A stretch of DNA of 64,000 bases from an uncultured Gammaproteobacteria bacterium (GCA_964349465.1 CAYGGC010000002.1:28841-92840), one strand, 5' to 3'. Positions 15,812 through 35,658 are shown, counted from the first letter of the stretch. Translations and numbers: made by a program. Notes: generated by a model from the sequence alone, not told the origin.

Positions 15812-16383
15812 GATTGGAGCACTTCTCCAGTTGTCGTTGCGCTGACGCCCAGCGCGTTTGCTTCATCCGTATCAAGATGTAATCGCCAAGAAAAATCAGG
15901 ATGGACGCGGACTAGTACATATTCAAGAACGCCGCCCCGTGGCCCATCAATGCGGACCGAAACTTCTTGACCTTCGTGAAGTCCAAAGGATTCACAATCT
16001 TTTGGGTGGGCGTGAATATGGCGACGCTGGAGAATCGCGGCCGGGACTTCGATCGAACCTTGTGGTCCGATGATAGTGACGGGCGCCGCGCCTTCAAGCT
16101 TTCCCGATTCAGACAAAGGTGGCGTTAAGCCAAGCTTGCGCGCATCGGTGGCTGCTAGCTCAACCTGGGTATACGTCCGGACCGGTCCAACGATTCCAAC
16201 GCGCCCCAACTCCCCTTTCGGTCCACGCAAGGTAACGCGTTCAGCAGCGAGGAATTGCGGGGGTTGAGAAATCGTCGCTCCAACCGTCATCGGTTGTTCT
16301 CCAAAAATTTTTTGCCAAGCGTCAGCCGACAGATGCACGTGACGAGCGGAAATTTCGATGGGTATATTAGACATAGTTTTCAA
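15808..16383 (-). CDS. pduL: Phosphate acyltransferase of the PduL type (PTA analogue)
   Basis: The duplicated PduL motifs are present: ISARHVHLS, then RRHIHAHP. The gene overlaps ackA by ATGA. Together the two form an acetyl-CoA to acetate ATP-yielding branch. Confidence 0.7.
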   Translation of the reverse strand: MKTMSNIPIEISARHVHLSADAWQKIFGEQPMTVGATISQPPQFLAAERVTLRGPKGELGRVGIVGPVRTYTQVELAATDARKLGLTPPLSESGKLEGAAPVTIIGPQGSIEVPAAILQRRHIHAHPKDCESFGLHEGQEVSVRIDGPRGGVLEYVLVRVHPDFSWRLHLDTDEANALGVSATTTGEVLQS

Positions 16384-17962
16384 AAATATTATGACCAGTC
16401 ATTTCGGGAGGAATCGGCAAACCGGCTAAGCCGAGTAACGTGGGCGCGACGTCGGCCAATACTCCAACCGGCGTTAACGATGAAAGATCGCGCATGGGCG
16501 CGCGAAAGCGTTCAACCAAAGATGCGGGCAGGTCGTCCGCGATAACAAATAATGGCACCGGGTTTGCGGAGTGTTCTTTTCCAACCGCGCCGGTCTGGCC
16601 ATCAATTTTATCTTCAGCGTTCCCGTGATCAGCCGTAATCATCACAAAACCATTCACCTCTAACGTTGCCTCAACAATTTGACCAATCAATGTGTCCACT
16701 GTTTCCACAGCTTTAATCGTCGCCGGAATGTTTCCAGTATGACCAATCATATCAGGGTTGGCAAAATTGACGACCATAAAGCTATAGGTACCGGTATTCA
16801 GTGCCGTGATCACTCGATCCGCCACCGCCCGCGCGCTCATCTCAGGTTTTTGATCATAGGATGCCAACGAAGGTGACGGCACCAAAATTCGTTCTTCACC
16901 AGGCCAGGCGCTTTCGACGCCACCGTTGAAAAAAAATGTGACGTGCGCATACTTCTCGGTTTCGGCGGCGTGCACCTGTTTTAAGCCAGCATCGCTAAAA
17001 ACTTTTGCTAATGGGGTAATGACTTTTTCAGGTGGAAAAGCGATCGTCACGGGTAAATCTTTTTCATATTCGGTCATCGTCACAAAAACCAAATTTTTCA
17101 GATACGCGCCCCGATCAAATTTCTCAAAACCAGGCAAGGTAAATGCTTTCGTTAATTCTCGGGCGCGATCGGAGCGATAATTAAAAAAGATGATGCTATC
17201 GCCGTCACCAACCGTACCAACTGGCTGCCCATCATGGACGATCACGGTCGGCACCATTTGTTCATCATACACACTCTTCGCGTAACTCGCCTCAATCGCC
17301 GCGATTGGGTCGGTCGCGGTTGGGCCGTCACCTTGAACCATCGCCGCATACACGGGAGCGATCCGATCCCAGTGATTATCACGATCCATAGCATAATATC
17401 GACCGCTAATCGTCGCGATCTCGCCGATACCAATCGTCACAATTTTTTTCTGTAATTTTGCGACCAGCGTCGCGCCGCTGTTGTACGGGCTATCGCGTCC
17501 ATCAAGAATAACGTGAATCACAACGCGCTTCACTTTAGACTTTTTACACAGTTCCAAAAGCGCGAATGCGTGTTCATCAAAACTATGTACCCCAGCCGCG
17601 CTAAACATACCGACGATGTGCAACGTGCTGGACGCGGTTTTCACATTCTCCAGCGCTTGCCCAAAGGCCGGATTCGTAAAAAACGACTTATCCATAATCG
17701 ACCGCGTAATCCGCGGCAAATCCTGGTAAATAACCTTACCCGCCCCAATCGTTAGGTGGCCAACTTCTGAGTTCCCCATTTCGCCCCATGGCAAACCAAC
17801 CGCATCCCCGGCCGCTTGCAACGTCATGGCCGGATATTGCTCAATGAGTCGATCGAGGACCGGCGTTTTCGCAAGAGCGATACAATTCCCCCGCGAGGGT
17901 GGTGCGACACCAAACCCATCGAGGATCAGTAATACCGCGGGATGACGTTTCGGCGTGGTCAT
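16367..17962 (-). CDS. gpmI: 2,3-bisphosphoglycerate-independent phosphoglycerate mutase (copy 1)
   Basis: LLILDGFG, MGNSEVGHLTIGAG and the C-terminal ITADHGN are all iPGM motifs. 531 aa. Confidence 0.85.
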   Translation of the reverse strand: MTTPKRHPAVLLILDGFGVAPPSRGNCIALAKTPVLDRLIEQYPAMTLQAAGDAVGLPWGEMGNSEVGHLTIGAGKVIYQDLPRITRSIMDKSFFTNPAFGQALENVKTASSTLHIVGMFSAAGVHSFDEHAFALLELCKKSKVKRVVIHVILDGRDSPYNSGATLVAKLQKKIVTIGIGEIATISGRYYAMDRDNHWDRIAPVYAAMVQGDGPTATDPIAAIEASYAKSVYDEQMVPTVIVHDGQPVGTVGDGDSIIFFNYRSDRARELTKAFTLPGFEKFDRGAYLKNLVFVTMTEYEKDLPVTIAFPPEKVITPLAKVFSDAGLKQVHAAETEKYAHVTFFFNGGVESAWPGEERILVPSPSLASYDQKPEMSARAVADRVITALNTGTYSFMVVNFANPDMIGHTGNIPATIKAVETVDTLIGQIVEATLEVNGFVMITADHGNAEDKIDGQTGAVGKEHSANPVPLFVIADDLPASLVERFRAPMRDLSSLTPVGVLADVAPTLLGLAGLPIPPEMTGHNIFENYV

Positions 17963-19503
17963 GCGAGCAAACTTTTTCCCGTCATATCAGCCGGTTGCGG
18001 CTGCCCCAGGATTGCCAAAACGGTCGGCGCGACATCGGCTAATCGACCGCCAGATCGGAGAGTCCGGGCCTTCACTGCTGGTCCCACGAGCCACAGCGGC
18101 ACCGGATTGGCCGAATGCTCAGTATCAACCTCACCGGTTTTGAGATTTTTCATCTCTTCCAAATTCCCATGATCACCAGTGACAACAAGCACGCCGTTGA
18201 CTGCCGTGACCGCCGCAGCGATACGCCCAAGCGCGGCATCGGTTGCCTCCATCGCCTGAATTCCAGCGGCTAAGTTGCCAGTATGAGCCACCATATCGGT
18301 ATTCGCAAAATTCATGACGATGACATCAAATTCTTTTTTTTCGATGGCGCCACACACCCGGTCGGTCAAGGCCACCGTACTCATGGCCGGAAGTTGGTCA
18401 TAGTATTTGACTGGCGGGGATGGAATCATTTCACGGTGTTCTCCGCCAACCGGATCCGGGTACCCACCGTTGAAGAAATACGTCACATGGGCGTACTTTT
18501 CGCTTTCGGCGATGTAGAGCTGTCGATGATTCCGTAACACCATCGGCAACGTATCGTTGATAGTCAAGGCTGGGAAGGCGCTCAGGAGGTCCCCTAAATC
18601 TGGACCAAAATCAGTCATCGTCACGAACAGCAGATCACGAATAACCCGAGATCGATGAAAAGCTTTCGTGGCCGCATTGGCCGTCTCAAAGTCCGGTTGA
18701 ACAAAGGCTTTCGAAATTTGACGGGCTCGGTCCGACCGAAGATTGAAAAAAATAATCGCGTCACCGTCATGCATCCCATCGTACCCATCAACAATTGTGG
18801 GCTTAATAAATTCATCGCTTTCGCCTCGGTTATACGCTTGCCCTACTGCGGCTAACGCATCATCGGCTTGGTGCTCCCCGCGACCTTGGGTAATGGCGTC
18901 GTACGCAAGCTGGGTTCGCTCCCATGTTTTATTCCGATCCATTCCGTAAAAACGACCCATCAATGTCGCGACGTGCGCATCACCAAAAAACGGAACCATC
19001 TTCGTTAACATTTCCCGCGCAAAAAATCGCGGTGAGTCGCGTCCATCGGTGAATAAATGCAGTTTCACGTCTTGGATTTTGTGATTTTGGACAAACATCA
19101 ATAGCGCCAATAAGTGATCTGGATCAGCATGAGCGCTTTCGTTGCTCCCAAGCATCCCCATAATATGCAGCCGCGACTGATGTTTACGAACGTGACGCAG
19201 CACCGCGAGAAAAGCTGGGTTCCGAAAAAAGGTACCGTTATTGATGGCGTTAGAAATTCGGACGCTTTCTTGCGGCACAACTCGACCGGCACCCAAGTTC
19301 ATGTGGCCAGCTTCCGAGTTTCCATCTTGCCCCGGATTTAATCCAACCTCAACACCGCTGGCGTAAAGCTCGGTCATCGGCCATTGGCCACGCCAGCTAT
19401 CGAGGACAGGCGTCTTCGCTTGAGTAATGGCGTTAGCGGGACTCGGCGGGGCAATTCCCCAGCCATCAAGCACCGCCAATACAACCGGACCAGGCTGGCT
19501 CAT
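17959..19503 (-). CDS. gpmI: 2,3-bisphosphoglycerate-independent phosphoglycerate mutase (copy 2, paralogue)
   Basis: VLAVLDGWG, GNSEAGHMNLGAG and VTGDHGN. 514 aa. The two copies have diverged but both look full-length. Confidence 0.85.
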   Translation of the reverse strand: MSQPGPVVLAVLDGWGIAPPSPANAITQAKTPVLDSWRGQWPMTELYASGVEVGLNPGQDGNSEAGHMNLGAGRVVPQESVRISNAINNGTFFRNPAFLAVLRHVRKHQSRLHIMGMLGSNESAHADPDHLLALLMFVQNHKIQDVKLHLFTDGRDSPRFFAREMLTKMVPFFGDAHVATLMGRFYGMDRNKTWERTQLAYDAITQGRGEHQADDALAAVGQAYNRGESDEFIKPTIVDGYDGMHDGDAIIFFNLRSDRARQISKAFVQPDFETANAATKAFHRSRVIRDLLFVTMTDFGPDLGDLLSAFPALTINDTLPMVLRNHRQLYIAESEKYAHVTYFFNGGYPDPVGGEHREMIPSPPVKYYDQLPAMSTVALTDRVCGAIEKKEFDVIVMNFANTDMVAHTGNLAAGIQAMEATDAALGRIAAAVTAVNGVLVVTGDHGNLEEMKNLKTGEVDTEHSANPVPLWLVGPAVKARTLRSGGRLADVAPTVLAILGQPQPADMTGKSLLA

Positions 19504-23326: not shown

Positions 23327-23540
23327 CGCTGTTGACCCAGCCGAGCCGAGAGCAGAGTTCCTGGTCATTCAGGAAGGTAGATCTCTCCGGGATACGCCCG
23401 TAATCGCGTTGAGCCGCTGTAAGACGGTCATAAGGCCGAGCCAAGCTCGGCAAAGTAAGGTGGTACCGCGCGCCCTGCGCCCTTACGAAAGCCTCAATCA
23501 TCCGATTGATTCTTTCGTCAGGGCGCTGCTTTATTAACCA
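23327..23540 (+). promoter_or_regulatory. T-box riboswitch leader, probably Asp-specific
   Basis: The conserved T-box sequence AAGGTGGTACCGCGCG lies at 23456-23471. A GA-rich Stem I base (CGAGAGCAGAG) is present. A terminator helix GCGCCCTG...CAGGGCGC is followed by TGCTTTATT just 10 nt before the aspS ATG. A candidate specifier GAU-A is seen in GGGAUACG. Confidence 0.65.
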
Positions 23541-23550
23541 CCTATCGTCT

Positions 23551-24867
23551 ATGGAAACATACCTCCCGATCAACGAAGTCGGCGCCCACCTCGGCGAACC
23601 AATCATCATCCGCGGCTTTGCCCAAGTCATCCGCGATCAAGGCAGTATTAAATTCTTATTGATCCGCGATATCACCGGCCTGATTCAAGCGGTCGTGTTT
23701 AAAGATAAAGCCGAAGCTCTCAAAGTTGTCAGTGAGCTCAGCGTTGAATCAGTTGTCGCGATCCACGGTTCGGCTAAGGCAGAAAAACAAGCACCGGGCG
23801 GTTTTGAAATTGCCGTCGATACGGTCACGCTGCTCTCCCACGCCGATCCAGAACTCCCAATTCCAGTGATTGAAAAGGGGCAGGAGGAAACGAACATCAA
23901 CTCCCGTCTTGATTGGCGGTGGATCGATTTACGGAAACCAAAAAATACCCTGACCTTCAAGGTATGGACCCTCATGGAATCGGCCTTCCGCGAGTACTGG
24001 GTCAATAATAAGTATTTGGAAATCCATTCGCCAAAACTCATCGCGACCGCCAGTGAGTCTGGCTCCGAAGTCTTTGAGGTCAAATACTTCGAACGCAAAG
24101 CCTATCTCGCCCAATCGCCGCAATTCTACAAGCAAATGGCTATGGCGGCTGGGTTTGAGCGCGTCTTTGAAGTTGGACCTGTTTTCCGAGCCGAACCATC
24201 CTTCACCTCCCGGCATGCGACGGAATTCACCGGGTACGACGCGGAAATTTCCTATGTCACCTCACATTATGACGTGATGGCCGAAGAAGAGCGAGTCATC
24301 GCCTACGCTTTGCAAAAGGTGAAAGATGTCTACGGCGCGCAGATCAAGGAACTGTTCGGCCGCGATCTCGTTGTCCCAACCGTTCCGTTTCCAAAACTGA
24401 CGATGATTGAAGTCAAAAAAATTCTGGCCGACCTCGGCATTCCGGACGAACGGGACGGCGACCTTGCGCCGGAAGAAGAAAAGGCGATCTGCCAATATAT
24501 TCTTGAGAAAGAAGGTCATGAATTTGTGTTCATTACGGATTACCCCAGCAAAGTTCGTCCGTTCTATCATATGCGCGATGAAAAAGATCCGAACACCACC
24601 AAGAGTTTTGATTTACTCTGGGGTGGACTCGAGATTACGACCGGGGCCCAGCGGGAACATCGTTATGACGTGTTGATGGCCCAGGCCAAGGAAAAAGGGA
24701 TGGAAATTGAAAAAATCCAGTTCTATCTCAACTTCTTTAAATTCGGATGTCCCCCGCACGGCGGCTATGGGATGGGCCCGAACCGGATGATTATGAAATT
24801 GCTCGGTATTGATAATGTCCGTGAGGCAATGTTCCTGTTCCGCGGCGTCAAACGATTAGAGCCATAA
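23551..24867 (+). CDS. aspS: Aspartyl-tRNA synthetase, archaeal/type-2 form (possibly non-discriminating)
   Basis: Motifs IHSPKLIATASESGSEVF, KAYLAQSPQFYKQ, FRAEPSFTSRHATEF, QREHRYDVL and PPHGGYGMGPNRMIM match Pyrococcus-type AspRS almost block for block. Start at METYL. Confidence 0.85.
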   Translation: METYLPINEVGAHLGEPIIIRGFAQVIRDQGSIKFLLIRDITGLIQAVVFKDKAEALKVVSELSVESVVAIHGSAKAEKQAPGGFEIAVDTVTLLSHADPELPIPVIEKGQEETNINSRLDWRWIDLRKPKNTLTFKVWTLMESAFREYWVNNKYLEIHSPKLIATASESGSEVFEVKYFERKAYLAQSPQFYKQMAMAAGFERVFEVGPVFRAEPSFTSRHATEFTGYDAEISYVTSHYDVMAEEERVIAYALQKVKDVYGAQIKELFGRDLVVPTVPFPKLTMIEVKKILADLGIPDERDGDLAPEEEKAICQYILEKEGHEFVFITDYPSKVRPFYHMRDEKDPNTTKSFDLLWGGLEITTGAQREHRYDVLMAQAKEKGMEIEKIQFYLNFFKFGCPPHGGYGMGPNRMIMKLLGIDNVREAMFLFRGVKRLEP

Positions 24868-24875
24868 ATAAACGT

Positions 24876-24915
24876 AAAACACCACGGGGCCATGCTTGGG
24901 CTCGTGGTGTTTTAG
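24876..24915. terminator. Bidirectional intrinsic terminator between aspS and the response-regulator gene
   Basis: AACACCACG-(GGGCCATGCTTGGGCT)-CGTGGTGTT, with A-rich sequence before and TTTT after. Confidence 0.55.
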
Positions 24916-24930
24916 GGCCTCGTAAAATGC

Positions 24931-25356
24931 TTACTCCGAAAACGTGCTTTGATGTAAGACCTCTTCAACCTGCTGCTGCAAGTCGTGTGGGTCGAGGTTT
25001 GACTTCACCAAATACCGATCGGCCCCGAGTTTTTTCGCGGTCCGAACATGCTCATCCGAATCAAGGTTAGAAAGAATAATGACTCGCGTCATTGATAACG
25101 ACGGCGTATTTTTTACCAGCCGAAGAATCTCAAAACCCGTGGGCTCGTGATAATTCTCGCCATGGGTGTCACCCTTCGGATGCTTTGGGATCAGGAGGTC
25201 CAAGAGGACCACGTGCGGGCGGTTAACAATGATTTGCTCCTCCCCTGTTTGCGCATCAAGCGCGGCGTTCACTTCGTAACCTGACTTTGTTAACATCAGG
25301 GTATAGAGCGAGGAAATAATTGGTTCGTCTTCGATCAGCAAGATGCGAGTGGCCAT
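24931..25356 (-). CDS. Single-domain response regulator (CheY-like receiver only)
   Basis: MATRILLIEDEPIIS...VLLDLLIP... with the conserved Asp pocket and a lysine (LVKSNLD). There is no output domain. The start is 13 nt after the stop of the kinase gene. Confidence 0.7.
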   Translation of the reverse strand: MATRILLIEDEPIISSLYTLMLTKSGYEVNAALDAQTGEEQIIVNRPHVVLLDLLIPKHPKGDTHGENYHEPTGFEILRLVKNTPSLSMTRVIILSNLDSDEHVRTAKKLGADRYLVKSNLDPHDLQQQVEEVLHQSTFSE

Positions 25357-25369
25357 AGACGTAGGGTAA

Positions 25370-28192
25370 TTATGAACGAGGGCTAACCACGTGCGCAGCC
25401 GCTTGATGCGGATGTGCCTCGGGCGCGTCAGCATGCGGGACCAAGGGTAGAATAAATTGGAAGGTACTCCCCTTTCCTTCACCATCCGACTCGGCCCAAA
25501 TCCGCCCGCCGTGGGCGTCGATAATGGATTTCGCAATAAATAAACCAAGTCCCGATCCATCAGGATGGATTTGGGCGATCCCGCTCCCGCGCACAAACTT
25601 GTTAAACAACTCCGTCGCGTCCTGCGGCTTAATACCAATACCGGTGTCTTTCGCGCGGAAATGAATACGCTCGTCTTCCAGTTCGGCCGTGAGGGTGATT
25701 GAACCTTTATCGGTATATTTGATGGCGTTATCGATCAAATTAAGAATGACATCTTGAATTTTATCGGCGTCAACCATAACTTTCGGCAAGGGTGTTTTTG
25801 GAAGCTTATTGAGAATTTTCAAACCCTTATCGTTCGCCGCTTTCGTTACTTCCTTAATTTCACGCACCACTAAATCTTCAAACTGGACTGGCACTTTTGT
25901 ATATGTGAACTTGCCCGCCTCGATTTTTGAGACGTTTAAGAACTGGTTAATTAAGCGAATCATCCGCTGTGATTCAGCTAATAAATCGGTCAGAATTTTC
26001 AGGTGATCGGGTTTCATCTTCCCGAAATCTCCCTGGGTCATCATCGACAGATAGCCCATAATCCCGGTCATTGGCGTTCGGAGTTGATGGGACGCGATCG
26101 ACACAAATTCTGACTTCGCACGGTCGAGTTCTTGAAGATGCTTGTTCGCAACTTCGAGCTGTCCGTTCGTTTCCTTCAATTGCGAGAAAAGCGTTAAGTT
26201 CCGCGACACAATCCCGAGTTCGTCGGCCATCGATTGCATCGTCGCGATTTCTTGTGGGGTGATGTCGTGGATAGATTTTTGCAAACCGATCTCAATCACC
26301 CCGATGGTCCTTGATTCCGAAATGATCGGTACTAAAACCATCGATTTCAGGCCCATCAGTTTTTGGATACTCGCACATATAATTTTCGGCAGCGGCGGCG
26401 AGAGAACGTCGCTCATCGAGTCCGTGATTTTTATTTCTCCAGTGCGAATAACCTGATGCCCTAAAGAGTTAGAGGCCGGATCCATGATATCGCTGTGGTA
26501 CGTATCAAACCGCAACGGCAATAATCGCATCGCCTTCTTAGTCAGCGGTGTTTCGGTAATTGCGCGCGCCCGAACCGTCCGACCATCTTGGTCGAGGAAG
26601 ACTAGAATCGCGCCCAGATAGCCAAGCTCAGTTGCGACGCTATTGGCGATATTTTGGACGGCTTGGGAGAAATCGAGTGTTCGCGTGACTTCTTTGGTAA
26701 TATTTTGCAGGGTTTGCAACGAGACATTCCGATCTTCGAGCTTCTCGGTCGCTTCCTTTACTTTCACTTTCAAATTTTCACCAAACTCCCGAACTTCTTC
26801 GAAGAGGTTCGCCTTTTGAATCGCTGATCCAATTTGTGGCGACAGCACTTCAATCAAGTTCACGTCATCGTTGGAGAACGTATCCCCAGAGAGTTTAGAC
26901 CCGAGGACAAGTACGGCAATCAAGTGATCTTGCGCGTAGACCGGCGCAATTAAGGCCGCTCCAAGCTTTTCAAATTCTTCTTTCGACGCAAGCAACGGTC
27001 CGCGTAGCTCTTCTTTCGTATCGTCAATTTTCCGCTCAAGCGATTCATAAATGGCCGGATGACGGTGCTCGCGGAGATAATGCACGAGCTGACTCTCGTT
27101 TTGGAGCACCATGTTTGGGTATTTGCCCAAAAGTTCCGGCAAGGCCTCAAACCGATCCGTGCCGCCATGCGAAGTTCGGCGCAGGAGCGTCGCCGCAAAC
27201 TTGATTTTGAGCTCTTGGGTTAGGGTCGTCCGCAGATCGGTAATCAGTTTTGTCTGATCAAGTTCGAAACTGAGGGTTTCGGAAAGTTTGCGGAGAATCG
27301 CTTGATAATCAATCTTTGCCTTGAAAAAGACTTTGTCGGTTGCTCGTGAAAGAAGCCGCTTGAGTGGATCAAGGCCGAAGACGATGAGAGCGGCGACGAG
27401 GAAGGCTATTGAATTTTGACTAACTTGGCTCTTTTCAAAGAAACGCGCGGAGGTAAACGTAATAAAAACGAAAGAGAGTGTGACGAGGGTCAACAGCAAA
27501 CCATAGATTAATGAACGTGTGGCGACTAGACGGATATCTAGTAGCCTATGCCTTACAATTGCGTAACTAACTAATACAACGAGAAAAAGTGTGCCGAGCG
27601 GTCCAAGGGCAACCAGACTACCGATCCCGATTACCGGCAGTAAAATATTAGTAATAATGCCAAAAAGAGCGGTAATTGCGACTCCAGCAAAAACGTACCT
27701 TATCTGTTGCTTAACTAACCCCGAGGAGCTTAAATATTTTCTAATAAAACTGTAAATCGAAAAAATTATTCCTCCAAAGAAATATAGTAAGAAAAAATAG
27801 TACCCTGGCGCATAAGTTAACTTTGCAGGAAAGATTGTGTTATCTACAGATTCAACAAGGTATCCAAAAAAAATAGTTGGCAACAAAACAATAAATCCCA
27901 CTAAAAAAAATACCAATACTGGTTTTCTTGGGTTAACACCAAACGGGAAGAGATAGCTAAAAAAAAGTATAGATGGAATCATTAGTACCGGTCCAAGAAA
28001 AGTCATTTTTGCCCAAAAAAGCGACCTATTCGGATCAAAGTCAACCAAATAGTTAGCAATTGCCCAAATTGCCAAGGATATCGCGAGGGAGAAAAAAGAA
28101 ATATTTATTTTGGATTTGTGATTTCTGTTTAGAATTAAGAATCCTAAAAAAATAATTGAAGCCGAGACAAAAAGAACTGACAATAGGTACAT
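25370..28192 (-). CDS. Sensor histidine kinase with 7TM, GAF, GAF, HisKA and HATPase domains
   Basis: About 220 aa of multi-pass membrane domain, then two GAF-like regions, an H-box (FVSIASHQLRTPMTGIMGY), an N-box (LNLIDNAIKYT) and G-boxes (DTGIGI, GSGLGL). 940 aa. The 5' roughly 500 nt are strongly AT-rich. Confidence 0.8.
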   Translation of the reverse strand: MYLLSVLFVSASIIFLGFLILNRNHKSKINISFFSLAISLAIWAIANYLVDFDPNRSLFWAKMTFLGPVLMIPSILFFSYLFPFGVNPRKPVLVFFLVGFIVLLPTIFFGYLVESVDNTIFPAKLTYAPGYYFFLLYFFGGIIFSIYSFIRKYLSSSGLVKQQIRYVFAGVAITALFGIITNILLPVIGIGSLVALGPLGTLFLVVLVSYAIVRHRLLDIRLVATRSLIYGLLLTLVTLSFVFITFTSARFFEKSQVSQNSIAFLVAALIVFGLDPLKRLLSRATDKVFFKAKIDYQAILRKLSETLSFELDQTKLITDLRTTLTQELKIKFAATLLRRTSHGGTDRFEALPELLGKYPNMVLQNESQLVHYLREHRHPAIYESLERKIDDTKEELRGPLLASKEEFEKLGAALIAPVYAQDHLIAVLVLGSKLSGDTFSNDDVNLIEVLSPQIGSAIQKANLFEEVREFGENLKVKVKEATEKLEDRNVSLQTLQNITKEVTRTLDFSQAVQNIANSVATELGYLGAILVFLDQDGRTVRARAITETPLTKKAMRLLPLRFDTYHSDIMDPASNSLGHQVIRTGEIKITDSMSDVLSPPLPKIICASIQKLMGLKSMVLVPIISESRTIGVIEIGLQKSIHDITPQEIATMQSMADELGIVSRNLTLFSQLKETNGQLEVANKHLQELDRAKSEFVSIASHQLRTPMTGIMGYLSMMTQGDFGKMKPDHLKILTDLLAESQRMIRLINQFLNVSKIEAGKFTYTKVPVQFEDLVVREIKEVTKAANDKGLKILNKLPKTPLPKVMVDADKIQDVILNLIDNAIKYTDKGSITLTAELEDERIHFRAKDTGIGIKPQDATELFNKFVRGSGIAQIHPDGSGLGLFIAKSIIDAHGGRIWAESDGEGKGSTFQFILPLVPHADAPEAHPHQAAAHVVSPRS

Positions 28193-28197
28193 GTAAA

Positions 28198-28503
28198 TTA
28201 TAGTCTGTTAAAAATACGAAAGATGCCAATTATAACGAGTACCAAAAAAATTAAATATACATATGACGGCAGTTTTTTTGCAAAAAAGAAAACATAGATA
28301 TACGGCACTAGGAATACTATGAGAGTTAATCCAGCTCGTACAATAATCTCAAAAGTCGAGACCTTCAGTGCTACCCCCACAACTAGCCAAGCCATTAGAG
28401 CATAGAAAACGGGCCAGGTTCCAAAGTATAGAATTCCAAAAATTCTGCCATCTAGACCATATTTATTGATTTGCTGATTTTTTTTTCGCAAAAAGTCTAA
28501 CAT
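28198..28503 (-). CDS. Small membrane protein, 101 aa, 3 TM helices
   Basis: Hydrophobic ORF lying 2 nt downstream of the acyltransferase stop and 6 nt upstream of the kinase start. About 33% GC. Confidence 0.5.
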   Translation of the reverse strand: MLDFLRKKNQQINKYGLDGRIFGILYFGTWPVFYALMAWLVVGVALKVSTFEIIVRAGLTLIVFLVPYIYVFFFAKKLPSYVYLIFLVLVIIGIFRIFNRL

Positions 28504-28505
28504 GA

Positions 28506-29213
28506 TTAATGCAAAGAATACCTATAATCTTTCCCATGAGGAGAAAGGGAGCCATTAGATAAAAATTTTAATAGTGATCTATTTTTTTCGTACATCTTTT
28601 CTTCAAACTCATTAACATGGATTACATAAGGAGCTGTAATGCCTTGAAATATTTTGGATTTCCCAATGCGTGTAATTGGGATATTAAACTCTTCGAGGTT
28701 CGGTGTTAGCTTATCATCTAAGACGCAGAAAATATTGTTTAAGTGTCTTTCTTTTACCAGCAAATAAATGCCCTTAATTAATACTAGAAGTAGGTGTTTT
28801 CTTCGATAATTTCTTGCGACTATTAATCTAGAAATTTCTGCGACCTGATTTACATCAACTGGTTGAAGACGATAATCAATTTCGAAATTTCTGAGTATGG
28901 GCAATCCATCATCTGAACCGAGAATAAGCCTAGCTGTTGCAGCGAGATCTCCTGAATTATGTCTTACTACAAGATGAATGGAGTGACGATCAAAAATATC
29001 TTGTTCTCTTTTATTTGGGTAATCTCTGTAGTCTAAGTATCTATATTCTTCACAGTAAACTTTGTAACGAATTCTATAAATTTCTTCTAACTCGTCATGC
29101 TCTGAAGTTGTGTAGAAAGTAAAATTTTTATAGACACTTCTTTCTGCTAATCTTAAATTTATCCCCCCAAAGAAAGGACTCTTTACCAATGCTTTCAAAA
29201 AAATGGAGGGCAT
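28506..29213 (-). CDS. GNAT-fold N-acyltransferase of the autoinducer-synthase/N-acyl-amino-acid-synthase/OlsB superfamily
   Basis: RIRYKVYCEEYRYLDYRDYPNKREQDIFDRHSIHLVV matches the LuxI/FeeM block R..VF..E..W.....E.D.FD..S.HLVV. ATARLILGSDDGLPI...AEISRLIV matches the E.SRL.V block. The start at 29213 overlaps the upstream stop as TAATG. Confidence 0.6.
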   Translation of the reverse strand: MPSIFLKALVKSPFFGGINLRLAERSVYKNFTFYTTSEHDELEEIYRIRYKVYCEEYRYLDYRDYPNKREQDIFDRHSIHLVVRHNSGDLAATARLILGSDDGLPILRNFEIDYRLQPVDVNQVAEISRLIVARNYRRKHLLLVLIKGIYLLVKERHLNNIFCVLDDKLTPNLEEFNIPITRIGKSKIFQGITAPYVIHVNEFEEKMYEKNRSLLKFLSNGSLSPHGKDYRYSLH

Positions 29214-29890
29214 TATTTTTTCAAAACAATATAAGTTGTAGTGGCAAACCAAATCACTGAACTAAGAACGCCATAAAGGAAATTTGGAACAAAGTCGGGG
29301 GAAAAAATAGGCCAAATCAGATCGATAAATACCGCGGGCAATCCACCGATGATCACAGACAAAAGGACTAAAAAAACATTTTTGCCGTTTAACCCATCGT
29401 TTCTTTTTGATTGCTTGAATAGCAGTCCTACTGCTAATAAGTAGAGAGAGAGTAAAAGCACATTGTAAAAAGGGAGTAGAGGTCCTGCGACTACCCTCCC
29501 TACGTTTGTTGTAGAGGCAACATAATCCAACTCTATAGTTCGTGTTGTAAGAGCGATTATTGAAAATAGTGCTGCGGGCAAATACATCAATGTTCTATGA
29601 AGTCTATCCAAATGAACTAGCGGAAGTGGAAATACAATGGCCAAATGGACTAGTGACGTAAGTAAAAAAATTCCAAAAACATACACAAAGGAATTGATTA
29701 TGAGAGATGCTTCTAGGCTGTAGGCCAACAAGCCGCTGAAAATCACCCACAACCCCGTACTCAAAGCCAACAACGCCATCACCTTCCGAATTTCACTCTT
29801 CGAGTGCGTCACCCAAAAGAAAATTGCGAGGATTAACTCCCCAATCCCAACAAGGTAGGTGGCTGTAAGTAAAAAGGTTTTCATTTCCAT
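29213..29890 (-). CDS. Stand-alone 7TM membrane protein, paralogue P1 of the kinase sensor domain
   Basis: 225 aa with seven predicted TM helices. It shares MK...ATYLxGxGE..L..FFW.T, FPLP, GGLP and a terminal YIVLKK with P2 and P3. Confidence 0.6.
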   Translation of the reverse strand: MEMKTFLLTATYLVGIGELILAIFFWVTHSKSEIRKVMALLALSTGLWVIFSGLLAYSLEASLIINSFVYVFGIFLLTSLVHLAIVFPLPLVHLDRLHRTLMYLPAALFSIIALTTRTIELDYVASTTNVGRVVAGPLLPFYNVLLLSLYLLAVGLLFKQSKRNDGLNGKNVFLVLLSVIIGGLPAVFIDLIWPIFSPDFVPNFLYGVLSSVIWFATTTYIVLKK

Positions 29891-29891
29891 A

Positions 29892-30566
29892 TTATTTCTT
29901 CAACACAATATAGGAAGTTACGCCAAGCCATACAAGTGTCGCTGAGGTGCCGTACAGAGGATCTTTAGCATACCCCGTAAACAAAGGAATGATCAGGTCA
30001 TTAATGACTCCCGGAAGACCCCCTAGGACAAAGGACAAAGCCACTGGCAGAAGGGTGTGACGATATGTGACATCAGCTTTTCTCAATCGGTATAACAATA
30101 TTCCAATAGCCAGTGTATACAGTGCGATAAGGTATATATTGTAATACTGGAAGAGCGGACCGCCGTGCCAGGCGCCCTGAAATGTTGAGGAGGAAACGTA
30201 ATAATTGAGGACAGTATTCGTTCCAAAAATCTCGAAAGAAAAAATAATGGCCGGGATAAAGAGCAGAAAAATATGAAAGCGATCTATACGAATTATTGGT
30301 AATGGAAAAAGGAGAGAAAAAAGCAAAACGGCGGTTACCATGAAAACTCCAAAGGCGTATGTCAGTCGAGGTAATAGGTTTTGCGCCGTAGCATTTTCAG
30401 TATACGCAGCGCCAACGGTTGAGAGTACCCATGCGCCTGTTACGATCGCAAGGAAACCAAGTATCTTTCGAATAATTTGGTTTCCATTCGTTTTCCAAAA
30501 AAACAATCCGAGGAGAACTTCTCCTAGTCCAATCAGATACGTTGCAATGATTGCGAGTTCTTTCAT
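29892..30566 (-). CDS. Stand-alone 7TM membrane protein, paralogue P2
   Basis: Start MKELAIIATYLIGLGE. It ends SYIVLKK. Its ATG overlaps the P3 stop as ATGA. Confidence 0.6.
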   Translation of the reverse strand: MKELAIIATYLIGLGEVLLGLFFWKTNGNQIIRKILGFLAIVTGAWVLSTVGAAYTENATAQNLLPRLTYAFGVFMVTAVLLFSLLFPLPIIRIDRFHIFLLFIPAIIFSFEIFGTNTVLNYYVSSSTFQGAWHGGPLFQYYNIYLIALYTLAIGILLYRLRKADVTYRHTLLPVALSFVLGGLPGVINDLIIPLFTGYAKDPLYGTSATLVWLGVTSYIVLKK

Positions 30567-31222
30567 TTCTTCACCAAAATATATCCGGTCAAGCACAGCC
30601 AAACCGAGGTAAACAACGATCCAATAAAACCGTATTTCGTGGCCGCATTCAACGGCAAGGCGATATCAAACACCGCCGAAACCACAAGCGAGACCACGAT
30701 ACCGATCGTCACCAGCTGGGTATTTCGACGATGCAACCCGTCGGCCCGCCGCCAGGCGCGCACCAAGTTCACCAACGACCACAGCCAATACAGCCCGAAA
30801 ACGACGATCAGGAGCCAGAACAACTCGCCGGTTGCTGTCGCGTACCCAGGGCCGAAGGCAACAATACTTGAACGAGCGACAAAAATATCGGTCAGCAGGA
30901 GCCCTGGAATGAAGATCGCCGCTGGCCACAGTACCCAGGGAACGAGCTCATGATTTCCCCTCGTCGGTAGAGGGAAGGAAAAGCTAAAGGGTAAGAACAG
31001 CACCGCAGTCATCAATCCCCCGGTCCAAGCCAAGTGCTCGGCGGTGTCGCCACTGATCCACTGTCCAAGATACCCAAGCCCGTTCGCCCCCACATATAGG
31101 GCAACCGCGAAGCAAAACAAGCCATACCACATGGTCGCCTGGTTTTTCTGGTATTTCGTTAGGAACCAAAAGCCCAGCCAAACTTCAGCCAGGGCGATCA
31201 CGATTAACAGCCAGCCAATCAT
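30563..31222 (-). CDS. Stand-alone 7TM membrane protein, paralogue P3 (GC-normal copy)
   Basis: 219 aa. Contains FSFPLP and ends GYILVKK. Its GC is about 55%, unlike P1, P2 and the acyltransferase. Confidence 0.6.
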   Translation of the reverse strand: MIGWLLIVIALAEVWLGFWFLTKYQKNQATMWYGLFCFAVALYVGANGLGYLGQWISGDTAEHLAWTGGLMTAVLFLPFSFSFPLPTRGNHELVPWVLWPAAIFIPGLLLTDIFVARSSIVAFGPGYATATGELFWLLIVVFGLYWLWSLVNLVRAWRRADGLHRRNTQLVTIGIVVSLVVSAVFDIALPLNAATKYGFIGSLFTSVWLCLTGYILVKK

Positions 31223-31422
31223 AGGCTCTGACAGAAAACAAACCCACGGCCAGTGGATTGGGTTTTTTTGCTACCCTGATAAATTGTCGATTTCCCGCGA
31301 GAAAATTCCGTCACGGTGGATGTATAAAAAGTCCACCGCTACTATAGCAGATTTGGTCTAAATGCGCAACTTGATAGCCCTTGTGCTATCAGCCTCGAAA
31401 ATTGCTCCAAGAATTTCCTCTG

Positions 31423-32085
31423 CTACTGAGAAAAGCTAGTGAGGGCTTTCTGCATGTCCGCATCAGAAATATCGGCGGATCCGAAGGAAATGAGATATTT
31501 CGGGGTAATAAAGAGATAGTAATAGCCATACGGCCAAGCATCTGTGTCTCGTTGTACGGTACGAAAAACCTGTTGACCGTTCAGTGTCAGTACATCAGAC
31601 GTGAGCACTCCCCGATCCCACATATACTGATCGAGAATTGTTGCCTGAGATTGGCTATCAAGATTCGTGAGGTTATTATTGTTTGGGTATACCTCAAGTA
31701 CAATTTCATCACTTGGGTTAGGATTAAATCCTACCAATGTATCTCGATTGCGTTCAATCCCCGTATTCAAATTCTGCCGACTAAATCTAGCCGCATACGC
31801 AGCCTTTTCTCCGCCGGGAAAATGCGTCATCGAAAAACTCTTATCAAGTTCCAACGAAAAACCATATTTCTCGCTAACATATTTTGTATACCCCGGTAAA
31901 CTTTCAACTGTTGACGTTTTAAGATCTTTTTCGGAACCCCATACTTTTTGTGTAGTCGTATTACTCGTAGTGTTACTATGTAACGATTTGTCTGTGGTTT
32001 TTGCCGTTTGCCGCGTAAACACAAAAACGAACAGAGCAATACAAAGAGTAGCTCCAATGGTTGCAAGGTAAATTATTTTTTTCAT
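31423..32085 (-). CDS. Membrane-anchored secreted protein, Ser/Thr/Asn-rich linker
   Basis: N-terminal TM/signal anchor (IIYLATIGATLCIALFVFVF). No recognised domain. Translationally coupled to the gene upstream. Confidence 0.5.
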   Translation of the reverse strand: MKKIIYLATIGATLCIALFVFVFTRQTAKTTDKSLHSNTTSNTTTQKVWGSEKDLKTSTVESLPGYTKYVSEKYGFSLELDKSFSMTHFPGGEKAAYAARFSRQNLNTGIERNRDTLVGFNPNPSDEIVLEVYPNNNNLTNLDSQSQATILDQYMWDRGVLTSDVLTLNGQQVFRTVQRDTDAWPYGYYYLFITPKYLISFGSADISDADMQKALTSFSQ

Positions 32086-32777
32086 TGTCCGTCCCCCATC
32101 ATTAATCGAACGATCGCGTCGAATGTATTTCTGTACATTGAAACCCGTAGCTCAACACCATCGGACTGATTATACCAGCTCCCAAGTAAAGAATATGCCG
32201 ACCCGTCAGATAGAGTTACCTTACAGACTCGGTCGAATTTAGTGTTAAAGCAGCTAATCGTTCGATTATTCTTGCTACCATAGATTTCGTCAGAAGTCAC
32301 TTGATCTTGTATAAAGGACAGGGGTAAAAAAATTGTAGTGTATGCAGGTGGTGTAGGCACAGTCTCGCCATCTGCTGGTATCTTTTGAACTACAAACACT
32401 GGCGCGTCATTGAGGCCTTCGCATTGCGTAACGCCTTCCATAAGGTAGACAGTGTCCTCATCCAGAGACGAGGGGCAGGCAAAGAAGGAGGTCGAGTATT
32501 TAAAACAAATTGAATCATTCACGCAGTATTTCCGGAAGCCTTTTGTGTCAGGAGTGGAAAAAGAGTTTTCATAAGGGATTTGCTTACCCGACGCTATGAC
32601 GGCTGGACCACGTTCGCGCTGATCAGTTGTGTTGATATTATTGAACGACTCGACATTTTTGTCAGACGATACATTATTAGTTAAATGTGTCTCTTCTTTT
32701 TGGGATAACAAAATTCCACCGGTGATGGTTATCAATAATAGAAGTAATCCGATAGGGATATAAGTGTTTGCTTTCAT
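32082..32777 (-). CDS. Membrane-anchored, Cys-rich secreted protein
   Basis: N-terminal anchor (IPIGLLLLLITITGGILL). Ten Cys in the extracytoplasmic part. No recognised domain. Confidence 0.5.
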   Translation of the reverse strand: MKANTYIPIGLLLLLITITGGILLSQKEETHLTNNVSSDKNVESFNNINTTDQRERGPAVIASGKQIPYENSFSTPDTKGFRKYCVNDSICFKYSTSFFACPSSLDEDTVYLMEGVTQCEGLNDAPVFVVQKIPADGETVPTPPAYTTIFLPLSFIQDQVTSDEIYGSKNNRTISCFNTKFDRVCKVTLSDGSAYSLLGSWYNQSDGVELRVSMYRNTFDAIVRLMMGDGQ

Positions 32778-32802
32778 ACCGAATGAATGAGAATAGAGTT
32801 GT

Positions 32803-32849
32803 TATTGAAAAAATTACCGGGTACAAGAGTATAGTACCCTTGTACCCGG
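32803..32849 (-). terminator. Intrinsic terminator 3' of the CHAP lipoprotein gene
   Basis: On the minus strand, CCGGGTACAAG-ggtactatact-CTTGTACCCGG is an 11-bp stem followed by TAATTTTTTC. Confidence 0.55.
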
Positions 32850-32863
32850 CGACTGTGAAGGCG

Positions 32864-33649
32864 TCAGTATCCGAGGTTCAAAGCCCTGTAATTCGCCAGG
32901 TTGCCCACTCCGGACCCGGACGTCACGGCGATGACATGCATCCCGATTTCCTCGTCGCCGATGAAGTTCGAGTCGACGACAACCACCTTCCGAACCGAGG
33001 ACCCGGCGGCACCTTCCACGATACCGACTACGATGGCCGTGTGGCCGTTGACCGTATTCGTTTCGATGACGTCACCGACACGAATCTGGTAGTACGGTCT
33101 GGCCGAGCCGCCGTAGGCCGGAAGCTTACTATTCCGAACACCCGCGCGGTACAGGATCAGTGCCGCAAAACTCCGGCACTGCCCGCCGTGGGAACGAACC
33201 GTGCCGGTGTTCTGTCCGGAGCGATTCAAGCTCGTCCATGAGTAGACGTCCATGTTCGAGTAATAGCTCGGCCACCCGGTCCAGAGGGAAGCGTTAACCC
33301 CGTACCAGTCATTGCCCTTGATGACATTGTGAGCATTCGGGTCGCTCAGTAGATACGCCCAGTTACTGCGCTGGACCGTTCCATCCGCCGACAACTGCCA
33401 GTACATATAGCCCCAGTTCTGACGGAGCGCGTAGTAGCACTCGTACTGAATGGCGATACGGTTGTCGGGATGCAGTCGACTCGGCTCCACGCCCGGCTTC
33501 CCGATCCGGCCCGACATCGTGTCGGCCGGCGAAATGGTCTGCTCAGTCGTGATCGACGGCTGCACGGGGTTATCCTTCCCGCAGCTCGTCAGCGTCATCG
33601 GCACCAGTGCCAGCGCAAGCGCCAGCCCCACCACCAGAAACTTCTTCAT
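32864..33649 (-). CDS. Lipoprotein with a C-terminal CHAP-like (Cys/His amidase/peptidase) domain, CHAP-1
   Basis: The start at 33649 (MKKFLVVGLALALALVPMTLTSC, lipobox LTSC) has AGGAAG 8 nt upstream. The catalytic-looking region is GGQCRSFAALILYRAG...GDVIE...GHTAIVVG. Confidence 0.6.
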   Translation of the reverse strand: MKKFLVVGLALALALVPMTLTSCGKDNPVQPSITTEQTISPADTMSGRIGKPGVEPSRLHPDNRIAIQYECYYALRQNWGYMYWQLSADGTVQRSNWAYLLSDPNAHNVIKGNDWYGVNASLWTGWPSYYSNMDVYSWTSLNRSGQNTGTVRSHGGQCRSFAALILYRAGVRNSKLPAYGGSARPYYQIRVGDVIETNTVNGHTAIVVGIVEGAAGSSVRKVVVVDSNFIGDEEIGMHVIAVTSGSGVGNLANYRALNLGY

Positions 33650-34068
33650 TGCACACTTCCTGTTCTGCTCCATGACGGAGCTAGAGGGTTTGGTCGCTGA
33701 GGATCACCTCCTCAGGTGTTCTTGATGAGCTACCGTGAAACGGGCGACGAACTGCCGTTCTGGATCACCTCCCTTCCCTCGCACCAGTTGTTGAATTTGA
33801 GTGCTGAGGTTTTTGAATTGTAATGTGCGTCACGAACCATGATGGTCTTTTTTTGGCGTACACAAAGCACGACTATCAACGCCCACTTTCTGCGTTGAGC
33901 CGTCAGTCCTCACCAAGCATGGTGATATGCCACAGCACCAACTACTCACGAGTGGTGCTGGGCAAGCAAAAACCAGCGGCCCAACTCTCGACACTTTGTC
34001 AGGTTAACAACGTATGAACGTTGTCAGCCCGAGCGAAGTCGAGGGCCAAGCCACTGGTTCGTATGTTC

Positions 34069-34761: not shown

Positions 34762-35658
34762 TCAGTACCAGATACCCGCGCCAGAGACACAACGCCACTT
34801 CGTACCGTTGATCTGGGCGTTGGTCACATAGTGCCGGCCGATCGTCTCATACGCCAGGTAATTGGAATCGCCCACTGTCATCCCGCCACTATCCTTCGTG
34901 ACGCAGACACCAATATGCTGATTCCCGGTCCCGTTGTTGTAGTAGACTATGTCACCTACCTGAGCGCTCAGGGCTGACTGATCGCTGGTAGACGTGTGAG
35001 CCGCCCAGCTCCAGTTTAGTTTGTAACTGCCCCCGGTCGCTCGGTAGAGCAACATAGCCACAAACGCGACGCACTGCGTCCCGCGACCATAACCACCTCT
35101 CATCGCGTAACTATCGGCACTGAGATAGTTAACCCAGTACTCGACCGTGTTCTGCGGCGATGCCATCAGCCCCGGCTTGTCGATACGGCAACAGTTGCAG
35201 ACCGGCGGAATGTCATCCGAGACGCAGGTCTGGAAGGTGTTGAGCGCATAGCGGAGGCCGTTTGCATTCGCATCCGCCGCCGTCGACAACCAGTTCCAGT
35301 TCGACTTCGGACCTGAAGGGCCGACGGTATCGTCCGGCTTAGTCAACCAGGAACGGTTCAGCGAGTACCAGAACTCGTTCCGCACAAAGTACCGTCTCGA
35401 GCCGATCGAGTACGGCTGCATCGACGACTTCCGCAGGGCAGCTGCGGTCGACTCCGCACGAGTGGTGGTGTACGTCAGCGGCGTGAGACCCCGGTAGATC
35501 GACTTGACCGCACCCCAGCTCGTCCGGAGAACTTCATGCTGCAGCGTGGCATTGGCAGCGTAGTCTGGAGTCTGGTCAGTTCCAGCAACGGCTGGTTTCA
35601 CCCACACTGACATAGTTGCCAGCACGATGAGCGACAGGACCATCATCAGCTTTTTCAT
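34762..35658 (-). CDS. Secreted CHAP-like domain protein, CHAP-2 (paralogue of CHAP-1)
   Basis: Signal peptide MKKLMMVLSLIVLATMSVWVKPAVAG. The Cys/His region is GTQCVAFVAMLLYRATG...GDIVYY...QHIGVCV. Confidence 0.6.
   Translation of the reverse strand: MKKLMMVLSLIVLATMSVWVKPAVAGTDQTPDYAANATLQHEVLRTSWGAVKSIYRGLTPLTYTTTRAESTAAALRKSSMQPYSIGSRRYFVRNEFWYSLNRSWLTKPDDTVGPSGPKSNWNWLSTAADANANGLRYALNTFQTCVSDDIPPVCNCCRIDKPGLMASPQNTVEYWVNYLSADSYAMRGGYGRGTQCVAFVAMLLYRATGGSYKLNWSWAAHTSTSDQSALSAQVGDIVYYNNGTGNQHIGVCVTKDSGGMTVGDSNYLAYETIGRHYVTNAQINGTKWRCVSGAGIWY

Follow-up and report, generated by a model that had tools for sequence, protein, structure and literature searches.

A CPR-type operon linking a putative N-acyl amino acid synthase to a HisKA_7TM-GAF histidine kinase through an apparently exchangeable enzyme-sensor module

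The stretch of DNA analysed here, 64,000 nucleotides from an uncultured Gammaproteobacteria bacterium (GCA_964349465.1, CAYGGC010000002.1:28841-92840) and referred to below as the window, carries a compact signalling locus of seven open reading frames (ORFs). All seven lie on the minus strand, running from 31222 down to 24931 with spacers of -4 to +13 nt (Table 1). They encode three free-standing seven-transmembrane (7TM) proteins named P3, P2 and P1, an acyltransferase referred to below as the synthase, a small hydrophobic protein, a histidine kinase whose N-terminus is a fourth copy of the same 7TM domain, and a receiver-only regulator. The original prediction, made from the sequence of the window, had described this single tight layout, and every ORF and overlap that it named was found. 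The two public contigs that carry this kinase are identical to the window, and the same genes are called on them.

Table 1. Features of the locus and its boundaries, in window coordinates. TM, transmembrane; GNAT, GCN5-related N-acetyltransferase; GC3, GC content at third codon positions.
Feature	Position	Strand	Remarks
P3, free-standing 7TM protein	31222-30563	-	219 aa; conserved chassis copy
P2, free-standing 7TM protein, P1/P2 type	30566-29892	-	224 aa
P1, free-standing 7TM protein, P1/P2 type	29890-29213	-	225 aa
Putative N-acyl amino acid synthase, FeeM/LuxI-fold GNAT	29213-28506	-	235 aa; TIGR03694
Small hydrophobic ORFan, about 3 TM segments	28503-28198	-	101 aa
Histidine kinase	28192-25370	-	940 aa; 7TM, two GAF, HisKA, HATPase
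Kinase residues 1-213, hypervariable 7TM sensor domain	27554-28192	-	
Kinase residues 214-940, conserved core	25370-27553	-	two further TM helices, two GAF, HisKA 692-760, HATPase 808-917
Stand-alone receiver, no output domain	25356-24931	-	141 aa; PF00072 only
Hairpin 3' of the receiver gene, likely operon terminator	24875-24914	-	
Low-GC3 variable module: P2, P1, synthase, small ORF, kinase sensor	27397-30567	-	
Presumed promoter region, 200-nt intergenic, upstream of P3	31223-31422	-	only sizeable gap adjoining the operon

The junctions are of the kind expected from translational neighbours. P3 and P2 overlap by 4 nt (ATGA), P2 and P1 are separated by 1 nt, and P1 and the synthase gene overlap by 1 nt (TAATG). 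The small ORF fills the entire gap between its neighbours, starting 2 nt after the synthase gene and ending 5 nt before the kinase gene, and 13 nt separate the kinase stop from the receiver start codon. Judged from this spacing, the seven genes are likely transcribed as one unit. The hairpin beyond the receiver gene, the only strong one, consists of an 18-nt inverted repeat with 89% complementarity and a 4-nt loop, and a T-rich run follows it on the minus strand. Inside the region, promoter-like and terminator-like matches were no commoner than in shuffled sequence, and a sigma-70 scan of the presumed promoter region did no better than shuffled sequence either. An Rfam search of 24000-33000, which takes in the 200-nt region upstream of P3, returned no family and no regulatory RNA.

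We then asked what the four 7TM segments have in common. All of them pass the Pfam model HisKA_7TM (PF16927; gathering score 28.6 bits), with 33.8 bits for P3, 30.6 for P2, 35.4 for P1 and 49.7 for the kinase N-terminus, and they can be aligned over their full length with P84, G132, P190, G201 and Y214 invariant. The free copies end in YILVKK or YIVLKK precisely where the kinase goes on as SYAIVRHRLLDIR. The alignment thus confirms two earlier claims, namely that one domain occurs four times and that the free copies stop where the kinase copy continues into the kinase module; the GGLP motif once ascribed to all four copies, on the other hand, is present only in P1 and P2. A local 7TM profile run over the 64-kb window matched these four ORFs only. 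Across P3, P1, P2 and the kinase sensor the invariant residues are restricted to Pro, Gly and Tyr, which argues against an enzymatic role. P3 was modelled by AlphaFold2 with seven helices (predicted local distance difference test, pLDDT, 90; predicted TM-score 0.88), and the predicted 7TM structure is a bundle like that of G-protein-coupled receptors (GPCRs), not a transporter fold.

The free copies are not recent duplicates but members of at least three old orthologous groups. P1 and P2 find each other with phmmer E-values of 2e-49 and 6e-48 in the two directions, and P1 has orthologues in L003, L008, L009, L010 and L098 (labels of this form designate related loci compared with that of the window). 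P3 has 40 orthologues, 45-97% identical, nearly all of 217-229 aa and none of kinase length. In a neighbour-joining tree the kinase sensors form one clade and the free copies at least three orthologous groups. The idea that the free genes are silent cassettes for the kinase sensor was rejected: the kinase sensors have their own clade, and the free copies, each with a start codon of its own, belong to old orthologous groups. When 1.84 billion representative proteins were searched with a profile, 4,879 relatives of the 7TM domain were retrieved, and 106 of the top 150 were free-standing. Moreover, at least 16 protein clusters combine 7TM-7TM-GAF with a kinase core, and three further clusters carry three tandem 7TM units ahead of the kinase. 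Because such natural fusions exist, a co-receptor role, in which the free 7TM proteins would work together with the kinase sensor, is favoured among the three roles suggested at first; those of exporter and decoy have become less attractive.

Two further observations concern these genes. A 40-nt direct repeat, 70-73% identical, lies at the 3' coding ends of P1, P2 and P3 (29215-29254, 29894-29933 and 30565-30604; spacings of 679 and 671 nt), and it could be an anchor for the gain and loss of 7TM copies, which number 1 to 4 between lineages. In addition, 7TM-GAF proteins of 454-468 aa that lack a kinase core occupy the free-7TM position in L012 (2595-4001), L094 (5167-7940) and L097 (1895-4649). 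They are intermediates between a free sensor and a full kinase.

The acyltransferase had been placed in the superfamily that makes N-acyl-homoserine lactones (AHLs), N-acyl amino acids or ornithine lipids. It scores 126.8 bits against NCBIfam TIGR03694 (cutoff 111.95), five homologues from related loci score 125.7-145.3, and the window protein matches Pfam PF13444 (Acetyltransf_5) and the FeeM family PF21926. The invariant core, R49, Y53, E70, D72, D75, R95, E126, S128 and R129, meets the pattern R-x3-F/Y, E-x-D-x2-D, R, E-x-S-R, and a profile of the synthase clade matches the AHL synthase BjaI at 1e-5 with the core residues aligned. The nearest solved folds to its AlphaFold2 model (pLDDT 84) are FeeM and the AHL synthases, ahead of ordinary GNATs. 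The LuxI/FeeM catalytic residues are thus in place and the protein does not group with ordinary N-acetyltransferases. No match to the LuxI model PF00765 (Autoind_synth) was obtained at E-values up to 0.1, and the position of LuxI Trp34, in the S-adenosylmethionine (SAM) pocket, is Tyr59 in the window synthase. Scores against the two OlsB equivalog models, 25.8 and 22.4 bits, fall far under the cutoffs of 350 and 320, and domain-model searches of the operon found no OlsA-like second acyltransferase. The superfamily assignment therefore stands with an intact core, and within it the enzyme, by these sequence criteria, belongs to the N-acyl amino acid synthase family (TIGR03694, FeeM-like) and is neither a LuxI-type AHL synthase nor an OlsB. 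Enzymes of the TIGR03694 family are described as producers of long-chain N-acyl amino acids (Craig, Cherry and Brady 2011, as cited in PMC9762135, PMC4897644); TyzA, for example, uses lauroyl-CoA with Tyr or Phe (PMC10404671). Its close homologues are encoded by genomes of the Candidate Phyla Radiation (CPR, or Patescibacteria) and by unclassified metagenome contigs, the best named match being Candidatus Kerfeldbacteria with 70% identity. More remote homologues (24-31%), from Proteobacteria and other phyla, are of the PEP-CTERM type. The exosortase and LuxR checks covered the Pfam domains of genes called in the neighbourhoods of the window locus and 11 related loci, and no exosortase domain was found there.

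The small ORF between the synthase and kinase genes, first taken for part of the system, turned out to be an ORFan in a variable slot. The 101-aa protein has no Pfam match and a chance-level NCBIfam match only (E 0.021), and among 5.8 billion proteins it matches only itself. It was also considered as a remnant of the ThiF-family protein, of the 154-aa proteins with four TM segments (4-TM) or of the fusions of a TM region to a methyltransferase that relatives carry at this place; tblastn and BLASTP found nothing in favour of any of these. Among relatives, a ThiF-family protein of 245-280 aa is the commonest occupant of the slot. Also seen there are 4-TM proteins (142-160 aa), one of which weakly resembles the small multidrug export family, a SAM methyltransferase, a TM-region-methyltransferase fusion and a 574-aa protein that, by eye only, resembles a PaaK-type adenylating enzyme. 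One related locus has a FadD-like fatty acyl-CoA ligase gene directly upstream of the synthase gene. No ThiF ORF or remnant of one was found in the 64-kb window.

The synthase and ThiF pair found in relatives is, by family membership, that of published acyl-oxazolone chemistry. In that pathway the N-acyl amino acid formed by OxzA undergoes cyclisation and oxidation by OxzB, a ThiF-nitroreductase (bioRxiv 10.1101/2020.06.11.147165); the Mycobacterium tuberculosis counterparts are TyzA, TyzB and TyzC (PMC10404671), and the pathway has been reviewed (PMC12596934). The discoverers of the oxazolones stated that their biological role was unknown and suggested signalling (bioRxiv 10.1101/2020.06.11.147165). 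The pairing also occurs in Geobacter, Desulfuromonas, Halieaceae and Methylococcaceae, with ThiF-nitroreductase fusions in the Halieaceae. Three of the four proteobacterial synthase-linked ThiF proteins tested pass NF006077, as does the Halieaceae fusion. For some CPR ThiF proteins the same model is the best NCBIfam match, below its cutoff, and the other CPR ThiF proteins are more divergent. Neither the window operon nor any related CPR locus examined holds a nitroreductase-family desaturase; it was seen only in the proteobacterial ThiF-nitroreductase fusions.

Pfam models find GAF, HisKA and HATPase_c domains in the kinase, which ends after HATPase_c, and they confirm the expected pair of a 7TM-GAF-GAF kinase and a receiver-only regulator. 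Models of LuxQ and other hybrid kinases match its catalytic core only, far below their cutoffs. An identity with PrsK/PrsR was considered and rejected, as the sensor and GAF part has no match to PrsK (TIGR02916) and only a weak one to LIC10906_fam; the receiver, unlike PrsR, is without a sigma-54 activator domain. Receiver orthologues lie downstream of the kinase gene, either next to it or a few genes away, in L003, L007, L009, L013, L014, L098, L108 and L109.

The kinase gene is a mosaic. Its sensor shares only 25-38% identity with each of the other kinase sensors, compared with 47-85% for the rest of the same protein; between lineages in general, kinase sensors are 22-58% identical and the rest of the same proteins 47-85%. 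Sliding-window identity steps up at about residues 180-200. The window kinase core is 85% identical to that of L106 and 74% to that of L109. TM helices 8 and 9 of the kinase remain 41-67% identical across the seven relatives compared, so the divergence of the sensor is no general property of membrane segments. Generic drift of such segments was rejected for this reason, and also because P3 is well conserved with a normal GC3. Base composition follows the same boundary: GC3 is 0.32 in the kinase sensor, 0.55 in the rest of the kinase and 0.60 in the receiver, and the drop inside the kinase gene was seen in all eight lineages tested. GC3 is also low in P2 (0.41), P1 (0.42), the synthase (0.27) and the small ORF (0.32), whereas that of P3 (0.68) equals or exceeds the values of the window's housekeeping genes.

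These properties recur in a conserved arrangement. In each related locus that had sufficient flanking DNA, the order was one to four free 7TM genes, the synthase gene, the variable slot, the 7TM-GAF-GAF kinase gene and usually the receiver gene. All loci with this order come from CPR bacteria or unclassified metagenomes, and in every related locus with enough downstream sequence the synthase gene is followed by a 7TM-GAF kinase gene. A second set of eight further loci was seeded with P3 instead of the synthase. All eight contain P3, P1-type 7TM genes or none, a low-GC3 enzyme block and a GAF histidine kinase; the kinase carries the 7TM sensor in seven of them, that of L108 being without it. 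The enzyme block differs in kind. It holds a synthase with ThiF or a methyltransferase in three loci, and a pyruvoyl histidine-decarboxylase-family enzyme with an unclassified protein of 241 or 243 aa in two others. A single locus has an AdoMet-decarboxylase-like enzyme, an EamA transporter and a protein like the C-terminal domain of lysyl-phosphatidylglycerol (LPG) synthase, and another an unclassified protein with a methyltransferase. In L111 the block consists of an alpha-oxoamine synthase (BioF/Kbl/SPT/CqsA family) and an OleD-like reductase. The alternative slot enzymes all make small amino-acid-derived molecules. GC content is 0.31-0.47 in the variable module; for P3 it is about 0.56, and for the kinase core 0.45-0.55.

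The boundaries of the module are sharp when the window is compared by blastn with its closest relative, L106, whose module consists of a P1-type 7TM gene, the 241-aa protein and the pyruvoyl decarboxylase. Homology is lost at 30567, at the P3 stop, and regained at 27397, at about kinase residue 265. For this pair, which differs in module type (L106 has no synthase), the sensors are 33% identical and the cores 85%. L007 and L014 likewise differ in module type, with 32% identity in the sensor, 78% in the core and 42% in the synthase. Pairs that share a module type behave differently: L113 and L014 have sensors 42%, cores 50% and synthases 52% identical, L101 and L107 have 53%, 48% and 43%, respectively, and L106 and L109, neither with a synthase, have sensors 58% and cores 74% identical. 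Sensor similarity thus appears to follow module type and not core phylogeny, and the low identity of the window sensor to all others matches its unique slot content. From these comparisons we infer that the block from P2 to the kinase sensor is exchanged horizontally between lineages as a unit, and that vertical descent accounts for the chassis, which consists of P3, the kinase core and the receiver. Since the small membrane protein is not among the conserved components, the conserved unit is such a chassis with a variable module rather than the seven fixed genes first described.

Several observations on the modules and on more distant loci stand beside this pattern. The cytosolic protein of 241 or 243 aa always precedes the pyruvoyl decarboxylase (L106 8397-9122, L109 8309-9040; 40% identical). 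It gave no convincing Pfam or NCBIfam match and no PDB sequence match. We tried it as a diverged acyltransferase, and neither hhalign against the synthase profile nor the PDB sequence search supported this; it may be a new amine-tailoring enzyme. In L079 (1486-4680, Saccharibacteria) a HisKA_7TM-GAF kinase gene begins 7 nt after a methyltransferase-synthase ORF, apparently a fusion, the start of which was set by mechanical ORF calling; no free 7TM gene was detected there. Outside the CPR, synthase genes often have genes of short histidine kinases of about 340-350 aa close behind them, as in L016, L017, L019, L033 and L038; the gap in L016 is 3 nt, and at least one of the short kinases has a weak PAS match. 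In L023, L024, L028, L029 and L045 the synthase gene lies near genes of GAF-HisKA-GAF-HD proteins of about 750 aa. About 40% of some 66 non-CPR loci have a kinase-like match within 6 kb, by a hand count with no background rate alongside. A linkage of this synthase family to sensor kinases may be general.

What could such a locus do? Its bearer is a CPR bacterium, with Candidatus Kerfeldbacteria as the nearest named relative. We propose a self-contained circuit that pairs one product with one receptor and in which a self-produced amphiphile would be sensed by a dedicated receptor kinase, and on the sequence comparisons above we consider the chances of this proposal evenly balanced. By family membership, the FeeM/LuxI-fold enzyme would join a fatty acyl group, from acyl-CoA or acyl carrier protein, to an amino acid. 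In most relatives the ThiF-family enzyme would then cyclise the N-acyl amino acid to an acyl-oxazolone; as the window is without ThiF, the uncyclised acid is the likely end product here. The amphiphile would enter the membrane of the producer or of its neighbours and be recognised by the GPCR-fold 7TM domain of the kinase, which would probably form a hetero-oligomer with the free paralogues P1-P3. Operon linkage, the co-exchange of enzyme and sensor and the natural 7TM-7TM-kinase fusions all point to product recognition and to the hetero-oligomer. The signal would run through the two further TM helices and the two GAF domains to the HisKA/HATPase core, which would phosphorylate the receiver. 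Lacking a DNA-binding domain, the receiver must exert its effect by contacts with other proteins.

A broader proposal, which we put forward tentatively and hold to be less probable than the circuit itself, is that of modular same-kind cell-to-cell signalling found throughout a single CPR group. The chassis, passed on vertically, would receive horizontally moving cartridges, each made of a synthase, the matching sensor and 7TM co-receptors. The cartridge synthases seen so far are the N-acyl amino acid synthase, alone or accompanied by ThiF or a methyltransferase, the pyruvoyl amino-acid decarboxylase, and the alpha-oxoamine synthase with its reductase.

A number of points weigh against these proposals. 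CPR bacteria generally scavenge lipids, so the product might be built into the membrane instead of acting as a signal. The window lacks the ThiF partner of most relatives and could be a decaying variant, though its seven ORFs are intact. The predicted likeness to the GPCR fold is structural only, and lipid binding does not follow from it. The P3-seeded sample is small, and low GC3 could result from local selection rather than from transfer. Furthermore, the sensor diverges faster than the synthase: between the window and L008 the synthases are 71% identical and the sensors 33%. In loci of the synthase type, the enzyme alone therefore does not explain the divergence of the sensor, for which differing tailoring genes may account.

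The strongest competitor, although we consider it unlikely, is the remodelling of membrane aminolipids with feedback. The N-acyl amino acid would be a bulk lipid, the 7TM proteins and the kinase would monitor the bilayer and adjust lipid synthesis or uptake, and the enzymes of sibling loci would make other amino-acid lipids, for instance sphingoid bases or aminoacylated lipids. The weak OlsB scores of the synthase are compatible with this, as are the sibling slots with a serine-palmitoyltransferase-like alpha-oxoamine synthase and reductase or with an enzyme like the C-terminal domain of lysyl-phosphatidylglycerol synthase, and the FadD-like ligase upstream of one synthase. An intramembrane 7TM sensor suits lipid sensing, and CPR bacteria depend on scavenged lipids. 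However, a score of 25.8 against an OlsB cutoff of 350 and the lack of an OlsA-like second acyltransferase in the operon searches speak against it, and pyruvoyl histidine-decarboxylase-family enzymes and plain methyltransferases fit the slot of a lipid pathway poorly. Moreover, close relatives carry modules of quite another kind at this site, and a hypervariable sensor is typical of specificity systems and unexpected for homeostasis.

It is still less probable that the two-component system senses an external or host cue unrelated to the product, the cassette being merely co-transcribed or regulated and the free 7TM proteins being independent sensors or decoys. The ligand of HisKA_7TM domains is not known (PMC5847659), P3 is strongly conserved whatever the enzyme type, and sensors diverge even when the synthase is similar; all this agrees with an unrelated cue. 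Yet it is the sensor, not the rest of the kinase, that changes with the enzyme block, sensors of like module type group together even where the cores are divergent, and the break in DNA homology lies just past the sensor boundary. Very improbable, in our opinion, is a role of the free 7TM proteins in exporting, flipping or giving immunity to the acylated product instead of being receptor subunits. Their genes lie directly upstream of the synthase gene, their number varies from one to four per locus and an amphiphilic product must leave the cell; but their predicted bundle is GPCR-like and not that of a transporter, no conserved polar catalytic or transport motif is present, tandem 7TM fusions to kinases exist, and some loci have the separate 142-160-aa 4-TM protein with its one weakly export-like member. 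That the enzyme is a classical LuxI-type AHL synthase or a PEP-CTERM/exosortase accessory enzyme is hardly credible, despite the label of AHL synthetase given to two homologues by the Joint Genome Institute (JGI), the PEP-CTERM/exosortase name of TIGR03694 and a fold near that of AHL synthases, since PF00765 is not matched, Tyr59 replaces Trp34, no LuxR-type or exosortase Pfam domain occurs among neighbours in the related loci examined, and the kinase N-terminus and the receiver lack the PrsK match and the sigma-54 activator domain, respectively.

The surroundings of the operon were also surveyed. Upstream, 31423-33673 holds three genes without a Pfam match that differ sharply in GC3 (0.78 in 32864-33673, but 0.38 and 0.43 in the two closer to the operon), and a CHAP/NlpC-P60 cell-wall hydrolase gene lies further on (34762-35658); M23 or CHAP peptidase genes and an SSB gene are also found upstream in related loci. 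On the other side, an aspartyl/asparaginyl-tRNA synthetase-type gene (23506-24867, plus strand) lies between the receiver gene and an NDH-2-like gene. In L007 the NDH-2-like gene comes directly after the receiver gene, in L003 two other genes intervene, and in L109 a glutamyl-tRNA synthetase-type gene sits between the kinase and receiver genes; insertions seem to be tolerated at the downstream border of the operon. Farther away, two tandem, overlapping genes of cofactor-independent phosphoglycerate mutase (iPGM; 16367-17962 and 17959-19503) adjoin those of enolase, PGK and the NDH-2-like oxidoreductase, and the same duplication and synteny occur in L007.

Returning to the proposed circuit, N-acyl amino acids and acyl-oxazolones of bacterial origin occur widely and are bioactive, and the locus offers a candidate receptor that is genetically wired to their synthesis. 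HisKA_7TM is a common sensor domain, for which the locus proposes both a class of ligand and a function of free paralogues as receptor subunits. Should modular signalling be the right reading, bacterial N-acyl amino acids and acyl-oxazolones would have gained their first cognate receptor, and bacteria would be seen to possess a counterpart to the GPCR signalling that senses lipids and amines. For CPR bacteria, host-attached organisms with tiny genomes, a conserved chassis that accepts interchangeable synthase-sensor modules would suggest lineage-specific chemical communication or recognition. The cartridge structure also provides a simple route to new signal-receptor pairs in metagenomes.

The original prediction had held that the arrangement fits no described system, and we found no paper that links an N-acyl amino acid synthase or the oxazolone pathway to a sensor kinase. 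In the literature searched, with few subscription journals covered, the link of such a synthase to a HisKA_7TM-GAF kinase, the free 7TM paralogues and the exchange of enzyme class together with the sensor were not found described. Free-standing HisKA_7TM proteins do occur in the LIC10906 family of Leptospira, which P3 and the kinase sensor match weakly (NF047679; 17.7-47.8, with a cutoff of 200). The closest enzymatic parallel is with OxzA/OxzB of Pseudoalteromonas rubra and with TyzABC. The synthase family is shared, OxzA-like enzymes encoded beside ThiF-nitroreductase genes pass TIGR03694, and a ThiF-family protein follows the synthase in most related loci as well. However, an adjacent ThiF-family cyclase was not found in the window, and the described pathways have no linkage to a sensor kinase or 7TM protein.

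The exchange of variable parts recalls agr (AgrB, AgrD and AgrC) and comQXP, in which the variable region likewise comprises the signal genes and the N-terminal sensor of the kinase, the core is conserved, and alleles are discordant with core phylogeny. The differences are that one peptide signal varies in those systems, whereas here whole enzyme classes are exchanged and there is no peptide precursor, and that our comparison is between lineages and not between strains of one species. As regards circuit logic, the nearest relatives are LuxM/LuxN, CqsA/CqsS and LqsA/LqsS, in which the gene for the synthase of a small lipophilic signal lies beside that of a polytopic kinase that detects the signal in the membrane. 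The synthase and kinase genes of the window are separated by the 101-aa ORF within the same operon, and sensing of the product is here a proposal. The initial analogy to a signal synthase paired with a polytopic sensor kinase has gained strength from the conserved pairing, from the co-exchange of enzyme and sensor, and from L111, whose enzyme slot holds an alpha-oxoamine synthase, of the family that includes CqsA and LqsA. In contrast to all three systems, the sensor here is HisKA_7TM with two GAF domains, and free sensor paralogues, one to four of them, are present. The kinase, unlike those of the LuxM/LuxN and CqsA/CqsS type, is not a hybrid and feeds no histidine phosphotransfer (Hpt) relay, its regulator being receiver-only, and the window synthase is unrelated to LuxM. 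The parts and the synthase-kinase logic are thus known, and the wiring of an N-acyl amino acid synthase to a HisKA_7TM-GAF kinase appears, from the sequences compared, to be new.

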